A stretch of 64,000 nt of DNA from an uncultured bacterium (GCA_964387845.1 CAYLXA010000001.1:224001-288000); one strand, 5' to 3'; positions 42,351 to 50,435 are shown, counted from the stretch's first letter. Made by a program: numbers and translations. The notes: generated by a model not told the origin, from the letters alone.

Positions 42351-42899
42351 TCATTTCGCTTCACCTTTCTTCGTAACAATTGTTTGGATTTTCTCAAATT
42401 CTGAATTAGGAAAACATTTTTCAGCATGACCGTAATGTTCGGCGAGCTCTCTGATGACGTTCCAATGGCTATAAATGAACTTTGTCCAACTAGCATGATC
42501 AATTGGAGCTTCAGCCTGGATCGCATCAATTAGTTCAGAAAGAATCTTTCTTAAACTCATAGCTTCATCCGAAACAAACTCTCTCAAGCAAATTAGGTGG
42601 GCAAGCGTTTTAAACGCCTTCTTCTCTGTCGAGAAACTTGGATTCTCATGCGTAATCCCGTAAACGACCATCCCGAGAAACCAAAGCGCATGTCCGGAAT
42701 TGTGATGCTCCTGCATGAGTCTCTTGTCAATTTGAGGCAAGCTATCGGCTTGAGGCATAACGACACCCTCGAGGCCTACCGCTTCACTTTCGAGGACGAG
42801 TTTCACCTTGTTTTGATAGTTTTCCTCAAGTTGTTTAATATCGATATTTTCTTGATATTTGCTATCCTGTATTTTGTTGTCTTTTGATTGGTTAGTCAT
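42351..42899 (-). CDS. Hypothetical protein (182 aa), divergent from the XRE-cupin regulator gene
   Basis: No confident motif. A His-rich segment HHNSGHALWF is the only notable feature. Confidence 0.35.
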   Translation of the reverse strand: MTNQSKDNKIQDSKYQENIDIKQLEENYQNKVKLVLESEAVGLEGVVMPQADSLPQIDKRLMQEHHNSGHALWFLGMVVYGITHENPSFSTEKKAFKTLAHLICLREFVSDEAMSLRKILSELIDAIQAEAPIDHASWTKFIYSHWNVIRELAEHYGHAEKCFPNSEFEKIQTIVTKKGEAK

Positions 42900-43090
42900 G
42901 TCTTATTTCCACCTTTGACTGAACCTTACATGGCCTTTTTTAAAGTGTCAAGGAACTCAATTAAGATAGTTTCTGACATATTTATATCTATATTTGACAT
43001 CCCACGTAAGTTCATGTAGACTTGATACTTATAGGGTAAAACATCTTCTTTTTGACCAGTTAGCCGTTGAAACTTTTTTGAGGTTTTCCT

Positions 43091-44416
43091 GTGTATGATC
43101 AGATATTAGCCAAATACCAAGAGCTATTGCCGGGCTTCCCACAGCTAAGGCGTTCCTTGATTGGATCTATCATTAAGGAGACACGTGTTGATAAGGGTGT
43201 CCGGCAGATGGATTTTGCGAAGCAAATTGGCCTTAACGAAGCAACCCTTAAATCCATCGAGAACGACCACCAATTGGCAACCACTGTCTCAAACCTCGAG
43301 AAATGCGCCAAGGCGCTTGGTGTAAGCGTGGATGAACTTATCCTTCGGGGCCGAGAACATGACCCGGCTAATTTTTTCATCTTTAAGAAGAAAGCCCCTG
43401 CCGTTGTAAAAGGGATACGAAAGCGCAAACGTATTCAAGATGAGTGGCATGAGAGCAAACGGCTCCAATTTAGAAGTTTTGATATGACGCCCTGCTCACC
43501 GCCCATTAATACCAAAAAGGATTTTTTTGTAAGTCGCGTAGTTTTGCCTCCTAAACGTTCAATAGATCAATTAAGCTTGGGCGCTCATCATCACGTGCTC
43601 GGATTTGTTCTGGCGGGTTTTCATATCAAGATTCATTATGCGGGACAAGAATCGGTCGTAACGACAAATCAAGGGTTCCTCTTGGACGGCTTTTTTCCTC
43701 ACAGTATCGTCAATGAGGATGAAGACAACGCGGCTTTGATCTATCTCGTGACGAGAATCCCCCATCCGGAGTCCACTAAGACGAAGTTTGAAACCGCTTT
43801 AAAGACGGTTGAATCCATCGACATTGCCAAGGGCATTGAATACATCCGGAAATATAAATCAGACCGCCCTAACGTCTTGATTGCGGTCAAACATTTAGCC
43901 GACCTAACAGATTCCCTGGATCACGAGCAAATTGCAAAATTGATGAAGCTCAAGAAGGGCTCGTCTGTTATTCATTGGGCAAAGATTGAAGACTTGCTCT
44001 CGGGTGTCGGCGTTTCTATGGAAGAATTTCTGACTTGGTGCCATCATAGAGAAGAAAAACCAATATCACTTGCCACGATTTCAAGCCGCGCCATGATTGA
44101 TTTCACTGCCTATTACGGACTTAAGATTTATTCTGCCGTGCCGCCCAATGTGAATAGCGAATATTTTTTCGGCGAGCTCATGATCGAAGGCAAGAATAGC
44201 GGGAAAAAGAATTGGAAGAGAAAAGACAAAGCCATGGTTGCTATATTTGTAGAAGACGGTGAATTAGAAATCACGGTTGGTAAAAAACGAAGCGCCATGA
44301 CGCTTCTGAAGGGCGAAAGTATTTACTTCGACGGCAATCTGGGTTATATGCTAAGGAATCCTGCAACCGATCAAATGCGGGGGATTTTTACTACTTATCC
44401 TGCTGTGCAATTTTAA
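43091..44416 (+). CDS. XRE-family HTH regulator with tandem cupin-like sensor domains
   Basis: N-terminal GVRQMDFAKQIGLNEATLKSIENDH is an XRE HTH. Downstream are HxH-containing beta-rich segments (GAHHHVLGFVLAGFHIKIHY) and a C-terminal cupin-like barrel. It is the only plus-strand gene in the island. Confidence 0.5.
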   Translation: MYDQILAKYQELLPGFPQLRRSLIGSIIKETRVDKGVRQMDFAKQIGLNEATLKSIENDHQLATTVSNLEKCAKALGVSVDELILRGREHDPANFFIFKKKAPAVVKGIRKRKRIQDEWHESKRLQFRSFDMTPCSPPINTKKDFFVSRVVLPPKRSIDQLSLGAHHHVLGFVLAGFHIKIHYAGQESVVTTNQGFLLDGFFPHSIVNEDEDNAALIYLVTRIPHPESTKTKFETALKTVESIDIAKGIEYIRKYKSDRPNVLIAVKHLADLTDSLDHEQIAKLMKLKKGSSVIHWAKIEDLLSGVGVSMEEFLTWCHHREEKPISLATISSRAMIDFTAYYGLKIYSAVPPNVNSEYFFGELMIEGKNSGKKNWKRKDKAMVAIFVEDGELEITVGKKRSAMTLLKGESIYFDGNLGYMLRNPATDQMRGIFTTYPAVQF

Positions 44417-44422
44417 GAACGA

Positions 44423-45235
44423 TTAACCAAGCGTTCCCAACTCGGTTGCATAGACTTTAATATGTTCAACCATCGTCGGAATATCAAAAGGTTTTTCGAC
44501 CAATTTTTCAGGCGGGAATCCCACCTTTTGCAAAAGGGCTTTCATTTCTTTCGCATACGAAGCAGAAATTGGAATTATCTTGAGGTTCGGCTTTTTATCC
44601 ATGAGTTCTTTGATTAAATTTTGCCCATCCATGCCCGGTATCTTCATGTCAATGATAGCCACATGGCATTCGTCATTCAGAATATGGTCAAGAGCCTTCT
44701 TGCCGTCTGTGAAAATTGTGAGATTGTAGCGCCTTCCCTCCAACACTTCCTTCATGAAATCATTGAGTTCAAGCTCATCGTCCACCAAAACAATTTTGGT
44801 TCGGTTTTCATAGTAAATTTCATCTTCATATTCACTATTGACTTGGCCGGGAGTAACGACACGATTCAATTTTTTATTGATCTTATCTTCAATCTTTGCG
44901 AAATCCCTAAATGGCTTTTCGATCACGTCATCTTGGGTAATGCCAACACTCTTGAGCTTTTCTTTCTCATCGTGATAATAAGCTGTAATAATGAGAACGG
45001 GAGTATTAATATTATTCTCGCGAAGCTTCTTAAGAACTTCGTAGCCGTTCAACCTCTCCATCCGTAAGTCCAAGAGAATTAGATCAACTCGATATGCTTC
45101 GAGCGTCTGATTGACTATAGTCGGATTTGCGGTCGCAATCGGTTCATAATTTCGCCTTCTGAAATGCGTTACAAGCTGTTCAATCACGACTTTATCATCG
45201 TCAACAATTAGGATTGTGCTTTGTTTATCAGTCAT
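44423..45235 (-). CDS. Response regulator with two tandem receiver domains and no output domain
   Basis: ILIVDDDKVVIE...LILLDLRMERLNG and KIVLVDDELELND...VAIIDMKIPGMDG. Confidence 0.7.
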   Translation of the reverse strand: MTDKQSTILIVDDDKVVIEQLVTHFRRRNYEPIATANPTIVNQTLEAYRVDLILLDLRMERLNGYEVLKKLRENNINTPVLIITAYYHDEKEKLKSVGITQDDVIEKPFRDFAKIEDKINKKLNRVVTPGQVNSEYEDEIYYENRTKIVLVDDELELNDFMKEVLEGRRYNLTIFTDGKKALDHILNDECHVAIIDMKIPGMDGQNLIKELMDKKPNLKIIPISASYAKEMKALLQKVGFPPEKLVEKPFDIPTMVEHIKVYATELGTLG

Positions 45236-49453: not shown

Positions 49454-49831
49454 TTACACTCCCAAACAATCCATAACTGTTTTCAATAGCTCCCTTATAT
49501 CAAAGGGCTTCATTATATAAGCAATCGGATTCAGCTTTCTCGCCTCACGCTCTATATTATCATCTGCAAATCCAGTAACAAAAATAGTGGGAATTTTCTT
49601 TTGCTTTTTACTCATGTTTTCTTGAATTTGACGCACGGTTTCAACGCCGCTCAGCCCTGGCATGCGTATATCCGAAATAACAAGATCAAAGTCATCTTCG
49701 TCCATTATAGCCACCGCGTCAGACCCATTGCGCACGGTATAAACTTCGTATCCCTGCTTTTCAAGAAGCCGACTCAGAGACTTAATGAGCAATTCCTCAT
49801 CATCAATTACCAAAATTTTCTTTGCTGACAT
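49454..49831 (-). CDS. Single-domain response regulator (CheY-like)
   Basis: KILVIDDEELLIKSL...LVISDIRMPGLSG...KP. Confidence 0.75.
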   Translation of the reverse strand: MSAKKILVIDDEELLIKSLSRLLEKQGYEVYTVRNGSDAVAIMDEDDFDLVISDIRMPGLSGVETVRQIQENMSKKQKKIPTIFVTGFADDNIEREARKLNPIAYIMKPFDIRELLKTVMDCLGV

Positions 49832-49848
49832 TACACAGCTCCTGTTTT

Positions 49849-50088
49849 TTATTTGTTGTCTAGTTTCTCAATAACGTATTGAATGATATCTTGTACTTTG
49901 TTCATTTTTGCAGCATCTTCATCGGAAATCTCAATGTTAAACTCCTCTTCAATTGCCATAATGAGTTCGACCGAATCCAAGGAATCTAATTCGAGATCCT
50001 TAATCAGTTCAGAGTCAGGCGAAACTTCTTCAGGTTTGACTCCCAACTGATCACAAATGACTTCCCTGACTCGAGCTTCAATATTCAT
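49849..50088 (-). CDS. Acyl carrier protein-like
   Basis: ELDSLDSVELIMAIEEEF carries the DSL phosphopantetheine-attachment serine motif in a 79-aa acidic four-helix protein. Confidence 0.7.
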   Translation of the reverse strand: MNIEARVREVICDQLGVKPEEVSPDSELIKDLELDSLDSVELIMAIEEEFNIEISDEDAAKMNKVQDIIQYVIEKLDNK

Positions 50089-50093
50089 AACAA

Positions 50094-50435
50094 CTATTTG
50101 GCGTTGAAACCATGAGTCATTACTTTCATGCGCTGAATAAGCTTCTCGATGATTTTCATACCTCTTTGCCTACTTTCACGGGACTGCCGTTCTTTTGAAT
50201 GTAGGATCTGGATAAGTTCGCGACAAAGGTCCTTGTCTTTATCCGTAAATGCCGTTGTCACTAGTATTTCATTAATTCTATTAATGAAATCCGGAATTCT
50301 TTCTTCAAGCATTCTTTCACAATCATTAGATGAAAATGCTATGTAAATTGGGTAAAGCTTATTTCTTTGATATGCCAGCAGTCTCTTGATGGCTTCCTTT
50401 TGTACTTTTGACCGTTCAAATGTCAATTTTTTCAT
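50094..50435 (-). CDS. Hypothetical protein (113 aa), first gene of the island's two-component operon
   Basis: Position only; there is no motif. Confidence 0.3.
   Translation of the reverse strand: MKKLTFERSKVQKEAIKRLLAYQRNKLYPIYIAFSSNDCERMLEERIPDFINRINEILVTTAFTDKDKDLCRELIQILHSKERQSRESRQRGMKIIEKLIQRMKVMTHGFNAK

Follow-up and report, generated by a model that had tools for sequence, protein, structure and literature searches.

Organization of the signalling cluster

The DNA stretch analysed here (the window) comprises 64,000 nucleotides (nt) from an uncultured bacterium (GCA_964387845.1, CAYLXA010000001.1:224001-288000) and contains, at positions 42351-50435, a cluster of ten genes that combines a membrane sensor histidine kinase with several receiver (REC) proteins, a methyltransferase and an acyl carrier protein (ACP). 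Open reading frame (ORF) calling found all ten genes where a preliminary description of the window had placed them, and Pfam and NCBIfam matches agree with its gene calls, domain calls and arrangement. Eight of the genes form a minus-strand operon. It begins with a 113-amino-acid (aa) orphan protein (50094-50435), followed by the ACP (79 aa; 49849-50088; PP-binding, E = 5e-17; TIGR00517), a single-domain receiver that we refer to as REC125 (125 aa; 49454-49831; Response_reg, E = 1.1e-27), a class I S-adenosylmethionine (SAM) methyltransferase, MT339 (339 aa; 48431-49450; Methyltransf_31/12/25/20), and the sensor kinase, HK759 (759 aa; 46155-48434; HisKA_7TM, E = 3.6e-10, and HATPase_c, E = 1.3e-17). 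Downstream of the kinase are a probable degenerate receiver (163 aa; 45664-46155), a second single-domain receiver, REC139 (139 aa; 45232-45651; Response_reg, E = 2.2e-15), and a tandem receiver, REC-REC (270 aa; 44423-45235), in which two stretches match Response_reg (E = 1.6e-38). The genes overlap by 4 nt at MT339/HK759 and at REC139/REC-REC and by 1 nt at HK759/163-aa, and the remaining gaps between the eight genes are 3 to 17 nt. The 3′ end of the operon lies tail-to-tail, 6 nt apart, with a plus-strand gene for an XRE-cupin transcription regulator (441 aa; 43091-44416; HTH_3 and Cupin_2), which is itself divergent from a minus-strand gene for a 182-aa protein (42351-42899), so the ORF map bears out the convergent and divergent arrangement originally reported. 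The 113-aa, 163-aa and 182-aa proteins have no family match in Pfam or NCBIfam; the homologue search returned a single homologue for the 113-aa protein (97% identical) and near-identical sequences only for the 163-aa protein. Scans for promoters and terminators scored no better than shuffled sequence.

HK759 consists of a multi-pass N-terminal region, a central region that is GAF-like in homologues, His509 and a HATPase domain. The His509, N638/N642, D676xGxG and G709xGxG positions are each conserved in 28-30 of 31 homologues, and the Pfam HisKA model itself gave no match. The HisKA_7TM and HATPase_c domains, together with the conserved His and the N, G1 and G2 boxes, identify the protein as a seven-transmembrane (7TM)-type histidine kinase. 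Receiver residues were read from an alignment with CheY (DD / D / T(S) / K). The complete set is present in REC125 (D10/D11, D54, T and K), in REC139 (DD/D/S/K), in both halves of REC-REC and in an HTH_17-REC response regulator that is encoded outside the cluster (52529-53152, minus strand; HTH_17, E = 2.9e-9; Response_reg, E = 6.9e-26). The preliminary description would have been refuted by receiver domains without the Asp/Lys/Thr triad; because the CheY alignment shows the full catalytic set in the four operon REC domains and in HTH_17-REC, it stands on this count. The sequence elements that two-component signalling needs are thus present, namely the kinase His and ATP-binding boxes on one side and receivers with acidic pocket, Asp, Thr/Ser and Lys on the other.

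The 163-aa protein, which had been counted as the degenerate one among four receiver-only proteins, has EE/E/T/E at the catalytic positions and an insertion of approximately 27 aa. Its alignment with a REC profile covers the full length and is weak (hhalign probability 50%, E = 1.6e-4). The single-sequence AlphaFold model is poor (pLDDT 53), with a REC-like order of beta strands and alpha helices in the first half, and a fold search with this poor model yielded nothing below E = 0.01. A similarly degenerate protein is encoded at the position of this gene in a related locus (L013). Three of the four receiver-only proteins are therefore secured by Pfam matches and residues, and for the fourth a pseudo-receiver is plausible.

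The preliminary description had proposed a phosphorelay or phospho-sink network. None of the ten proteins matched a histidine phosphotransfer (Hpt) family in Pfam at E values up to 0.01, and we therefore rejected a strict multi-step phosphorelay; a branched, multi-receiver or phospho-sink layout is possible. Multi-receiver networks of other bacteria (DrdR of Xanthomonas, PMC13507683; pseudo-receivers, PMC12632262) resemble the cluster in that REC-only, tandem REC-REC and (in the window, probably) degenerate receivers follow one kinase, and differ from it in that the window cluster has no Hpt protein. The receivers of the cluster probably work by contacting other proteins or by serving as sinks for phosphate. 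No DNA-binding domain was detected in any operon protein with Pfam or NCBIfam, in line with the original statement that the operon lacks a DNA-binding output.

A receiver–methyltransferase–7TM unit conserved in Omnitrophota

For comparison with the window proteins, 91 further loci (denoted by L numbers) were fetched and their ORFs called, and 80 distinct loci were counted. The relatives of the methyltransferase were located in Omnitrophota genomes from metagenomes, and the window sequence itself also occurs on one Logan contig. To our knowledge, Omnitrophota are known only from metagenomes and enrichments. The methyltransferase family comprises more than 1296 clusters, of which the top 120, almost all unnamed, are 53-66% identical to MT339. 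The gene directly upstream of the methyltransferase is an orthologue of REC125 in 49 of the 66 loci that could be assessed (median gap, 2 nt), a lower bound because the greedy ORF caller lost some overlapping REC genes. Directly downstream, a protein with an HK759-like N terminus is encoded in 58 of 65 loci (median gap, 3 nt). The median identity to the window proteins is 56% for the methyltransferase, 55% for the REC protein and 30% for the 7TM protein. Among 39 distinct complete downstream neighbours, Pfam detected HisKA_7TM in 34, HATPase_c in 29, GAF in approximately 20, HD-GYP in 2 and a REC-HMG-CoA reductase in 2; 29/39 are 7TM histidine kinases and 2/39 are 7TM-HD-GYP proteins.

The genes flanking this unit vary between loci. 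The full layout of the cluster (REC, methyltransferase, 7TM kinase, receiver, REC-REC and an opposite-strand XRE-cupin gene) is repeated in L002, L038, L070 and L084. Orthologues of REC-REC (265-278 aa) occupy the same position in L002, L038 (65% identity), L051, L055, L064, L070 and L084, and L038 also encodes an orthologue of REC139 (47% identity) and, in the same relative positions as in the window, an ACP and a homologue of the 182-aa protein (39% identity). The XRE-cupin regulator has full-length homologues on the opposite strand in L002, L038 (60% identity), L070 and L084 and shorter versions of approximately 210 aa in L048, L051, L055, L061, L064 and L065. The 113-aa protein is absent from the related loci compared.

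Judged by this comparison, REC125, the methyltransferase and the 7TM domain are the conserved core, with REC125 as the conserved, predicted regulatory partner of MT339. This changes the initial picture of the cluster in two respects. The methyltransferase, which had been regarded as something embedded in the operon, belongs to the core; and the system is found across the phylum rather than on the island alone, mostly in contexts that are not obviously mobile. We found no description of the receiver–methyltransferase–7TM arrangement in the literature searched, and we rate as new both a regulated enzyme of this kind within two-component and cyclic di-GMP (c-di-GMP) signalling and its conserved coupling to the HisKA_7TM sensor family.

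MT339 as a putative regulated YnbC-like enzyme

MT339 had been described as a methyltransferase that is not CheR-like, and this holds: the CheR model matched only below its cutoff (E = 0.0017), and the Methyltransf_20/YnbC superfamily fits instead. PF12147 (Methyltransf_20) scores MT339 at 29.8 bits (cutoff, 21), and a profile of the MT339 family aligns with residues 352-569 of Escherichia coli YnbC (hhalign probability 94.4%, E = 8.8e-8), and the alignment takes in the motif block ahead of the Rossmann fold. YnbC combines Hydrolase_4 with Methyltransf_20 (PF12147 score, 501.8 bits), and its neighbours in ynbABCD encode a CDP-alcohol phosphatidyltransferase, a phosphatidate cytidylyltransferase and a PAP2 phosphatase. 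From these profile matches, MT339 can be assigned as a remote member of the YnbC/Methyltransf_20 superfamily. It differs from YnbC in having an extra N-terminal helical region (approximately residues 7-96) and no hydrolase partner, Pfam having detected no Hydrolase_4 domain, fused or adjacent, in the window operon; in addition, MT339 is encoded among signalling genes, whereas ynbC lies among phospholipid enzymes. In the structural model of MT339, which is confident (pLDDT 89), residues 7-157 form a helical N-terminal domain that sits on a Rossmann fold. A fold search returned small-molecule and polyketide synthase (PKS) methyltransferases as neighbours, and the methyltransferase profile had no significant sequence match among solved structures.

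An exhaustive search with the methyltransferase yielded 4293 representatives at E < 1e-3. In 10 of 10 long homologues scanned, one or two N-terminal copies of PilZ, a c-di-GMP receptor domain, are fused to the methyltransferase, and the RxxxR and DxSxxG motifs that bind c-di-GMP are intact in the three fusions whose sequences were read. PilZ-methyltransferase genes are followed by genes for HisKA_7TM proteins in L093, L094 and L095, and one such gene is followed by that of a MASE8-PAS kinase. In L099 and L100, a REC gene and a PilZ domain both precede the methyltransferase. The best reading is that the methyltransferase is a regulated enzyme that would be gated by phosphorylation or by c-di-GMP, and MT339 is the most plausible enzymatic output of the cluster. 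In this reading the several receivers, the XRE-cupin regulator and the HTH_17 proteins would form side branches.

These variants bear on a rival account, in which the kinase, through REC125, controls a methyltransferase that modifies a lipid, a cofactor or something else that the 7TM domain does not sense, the other receivers being sinks or adaptors. The genes for a kinase and its regulator are usually neighbours, and a regulator split into a REC protein and an enzyme fits the gene order; the fusion of REC to lipid enzymes in L007 and L090 (see below) also shows that enzymes are placed under receiver control in this lineage. However, adjacency is kept where the 7TM protein is not a kinase (7TM-HD-GYP) and where PilZ replaces REC as the input. 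Because the link between the methyltransferase and the 7TM protein survives changes of both output and input, cognate phosphotransfer alone, and with it the ordinary adjacency of kinase and regulator, fails to explain it. We consider such a one-way output unlikely, and favour a reading in which the 7TM sensor responds to what the methyltransferase makes.

Lipid-enzyme genes around the unit

The preliminary description had seen in the ACP and the methyltransferase a hint of a lipid- or acyl-linked signal. This hint gains support from the YnbC superfamily, from the recurrence of the ACP and from lipid enzymes in L007, and the substrate would be a lipid-derived or acyl molecule by extension from these. 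The ACP is of the canonical AcpP type (TIGR00517, 92.2 bits against a cutoff of 70.45) and has a DSLD phosphopantetheine site (LDSLDSVE). Homologues with 48-61% identity are encoded in L007, L013, L038, L047 and L082, and in the two closest relatives the gene occupies the same position. The possibility that the methyltransferase and the ACP are chance passengers was rejected, as the triad is conserved and the ACP recurs.

In L007 (GCA_030698625.1, JAUYMS010000048.1; 9010-17023), the REC-methyltransferase pair is followed, in place of the kinase, by a run of lipid-enzyme genes that encode a REC-HMG-CoA reductase, a REC-4HBT thioesterase, an ICMT/PEMT enzyme, an ACP (61% identity with that of the operon), a REC-ketoacyl synthase and a PEMT-methyltransferase fusion. 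A REC-HMG-CoA reductase gene also adjoins the REC-methyltransferase pair in L090 (2303-3859). These REC-enzyme fusions suggest that lipid-metabolism enzymes are under the direct control of receiver domains in Omnitrophota. A further likeness to YnbC is found in sister Omnitrophota operons, which contain canonical Methyltransf_20 paralogues whose Hydrolase_4 partner is encoded separately: such split pairs (Hydrolase_4 and a 275-aa Methyltransf_20 protein) lie beside a 7TM kinase and REC-REC in L048 (2779-4913), L060 (6708-8854), L072 (13752-15889) and L002 (3042-4759). In three of these four loci, Hydrolase_4 is fused to a C-terminal receiver, and L002 has both types of methyltransferase.

The pairing of a hydrolase-REC fusion with a methyltransferase in these paralogous modules resembles CheB/CheR and raises the question of receptor adaptation, in which the enzyme would add methyl groups to the 7TM sensor, in its cytoplasmic portion, or to a receiver and so reset sensitivity, with feedback from the pathway output through REC125 or, in relatives, through c-di-GMP and PilZ. 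The likeness to CheR/CheB with a methyl-accepting chemotaxis protein (MCP), and to the control of CheR1 by the PilZ protein MapZ in Pseudomonas aeruginosa (bioRxiv 10.1101/814665; 10.1101/2020.02.11.943704), lies in a methyltransferase that is linked to a membrane receptor and would be controlled by a receiver or by c-di-GMP/PilZ. Adaptation would account for a methyltransferase that stays tied to the sensor whatever the output, and for enzyme inputs (phosphate and c-di-GMP) that match the possible outputs of the sensor. On the other hand, MT339 is unrelated to CheR; Pfam and NCBIfam detected neither an MCP signalling domain nor CheA or CheW among the operon proteins, and neither the window operon nor most of the loci have an esterase. 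Furthermore, the methyltransferase is far better conserved than its supposed substrate (56% versus 30%), and the fusion of hydrolase and methyltransferase in YnbC would suit sequential rather than opposing steps. Adaptation is therefore doubtful in our view, and we return to sensing of a methylated product as the favoured reading.

The preliminary description had proposed the HTH-REC protein at the edge of the island as the output of the network, and this proposal gains support from the recurrence of HTH_17 beside or fused to REC and methyltransferase genes. HTH_17 is fused to the methyltransferase in P0079, P0115, L034 and L053, is the product of a small gene that lies upstream of the REC gene and the methyltransferase gene in L039 and L082, and follows the kinase in L099. 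HTH_17-REC is accordingly placed here as a candidate DNA-binding output.

Proposed mechanism

We suggest that the cluster represents an enlarged version of a conserved signalling unit that consists of a small regulatory input, a YnbC-like methyltransferase and a HisKA_7TM sensor, in which the enzyme is gated and its lipid product is sensed, and we give this proposal about an even chance. The input would be the stand-alone receiver in the window and the fused PilZ receptor in the relatives. HK759 would autophosphorylate at His509 and pass the phosphate to REC125, REC139 and REC-REC, with the 163-aa degenerate receiver serving as a non-phosphorylatable adaptor. Phosphorylated REC125 would then turn the methyltransferase on or off. 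The enzyme would act on a lipid-derived or acyl molecule, the acyl group of which might be carried or supplied by the operon ACP, and the 7TM domain would read the methylated molecule or the resulting state of the membrane, thereby closing a loop. Such a loop could amount to autocrine or quorum signalling like that of the Phc system in Ralstonia or, equally, to membrane-lipid homeostasis. Effects on transcription would be exerted through the convergent XRE-cupin regulator and HTH_17-REC.

The Phc system offers one of the closest parallels. In Ralstonia phcBSR, the methyltransferase PhcB makes a fatty-acid methyl ester that is sensed by the kinase PhcS, and PhcQ, a CheY-family receiver protein, is one of the cognate response regulators of PhcS (PMC11960443, PMC8578825, PMC6989110). 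Likened by gene order and description (PMC11960443, PMC6989110), the two systems share a methyltransferase gene directly upstream of that of the sensor kinase, with receivers after it. They differ in that the enzyme is preceded here by a dedicated receiver or a PilZ domain, the sensor belongs to the HisKA_7TM type and an ACP is present; in place of a PhcA-like LysR regulator, the window has the XRE-cupin and HTH_17 proteins. No NCBIfam match named PhcB was obtained among the operon proteins.

Several observations weigh against sensing of a lipid product. The lipid link of MT339 rests on remote homology and gene neighbourhood. In the literature searched, we found no characterisation of YnbC and no reaction for YnbC-type methyltransferases. 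The closest structural neighbour of MT339 is 3ocj, a protein without known function, and many invariant residues of MT339 are polar or charged and would also suit a polar or a protein substrate. The ACP is present in 6 of approximately 81 loci, counting the window, and is thus not essential to the core. Conservation among orthologues is in part due to common descent. Finally, in the distant relative L102 (4030-14914 on a 4.6-Mb contig), which presumably comes from outside the close Omnitrophota clade, a PilZ-PilZ-methyltransferase (648 aa) is encoded between two hybrid kinases of approximately 1200-1300 aa with duplicated HisKA-HATPase-REC units and GAF domains, for which HisKA_7TM was not reported. 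What is shared in that case may be kinases and not membranes, an arrangement that also speaks for receptor adaptation.

The triad, which is both conserved and very common, links HisKA_7TM sensors with YnbC-type methyltransferases and thereby provides a testable handle on both the ligand and the reaction. We know of no ligand assigned so far to HisKA_7TM sensors. A broader proposal, that the methylated lipid or fatty-acid methyl ester of a gated methyltransferase is detected by HisKA_7TM receptors in an unrecognised class of lipid signalling, spread in the present case by a conjugative element, is put forward tentatively, as rather unlikely. If true, it would provide a Phc-like cell-to-cell signal for uncultivated Omnitrophota and a first ligand class for the 7TM sensor family.

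The cluster is carried by an integrative conjugative element

An exact 42-nt direct repeat at 5524-5565 and 53424-53465 corresponds to the 3′ part of tRNA-Met, from the anticodon loop to the 3′ end, and the second copy lies in the tRNA-Met gene (53423-53498). Between the repeats are genes for a tyrosine integrase (5648-6877), a VirB4/TraC-like ATPase (16293-18773), a coupling protein (23537-25360) and a Replic_Relax (relaxase-like) protein (25357-26088). The exact repeat delimits, and the integrase and conjugation genes mark, an integrative conjugative element (ICE) of 47.9 kb (5524-53465), of which the cluster is therefore cargo. The island-borne character attributed to the cluster from the outset is substantiated by the tRNA-Met repeat together with the genes for the integrase, for type IV secretion and for a relaxase-like protein. 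GC content is lower over 26-51 kb. Such a signalling unit can thus travel on a conjugative element.

Its location invites a further explanation, namely that the cluster controls excision or transfer of the ICE, with HTH_17-REC as a phosphorylation-controlled, excisionase-like factor. HTH_17 has an excisionase-type fold, and the HTH_17-REC gene is situated approximately 270 nt inside the tRNA-side attachment (att) repeat. In L094 (4406-10043), moreover, a PilZ-methyltransferase-7TM unit comes right after HTH_17, RepA_C, integrase and BrnT/CopG toxin-antitoxin genes. Most related loci, however, are not obviously mobile, lying for example near EF-G, dehydroquinate (DHQ) synthase and PilZ genes, and the triad is kept throughout the phylum whatever its surroundings. 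Regulation of the element is thus highly improbable as the function of the cluster, for which we retain a sensed methylation product. PilZ-methyltransferase-7TM units may often ride mobile elements.

The element carries other cargo. The operon and the HTH_17-REC gene are separated by a gene (50760-52502, minus strand) for a 580-aa FG-GAP repeat protein whose N terminus resembles a signal peptide and of which no homologue was seen in the related loci. On its other side, the cluster is adjoined at 33980-41705 (minus strand) by a gene for a 2070-aa RHS/YD-repeat toxin-like protein (SpvB, TcdB_toxin_midN and RHS_repeat) and, preceding it, that of a 503-aa protein rich in Ig-like domains; both belong to the element cargo. 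The gene at 27005-30919 (minus strand) encodes a 1304-aa protein that combines DUF4062 with a STAND-type NTPase domain, as is typical of defence or conflict systems, and neighbouring genes for an Amidoligase_2 protein and a class II glutamine amidotransferase lie inside the element at 20325-22685 (minus strand).

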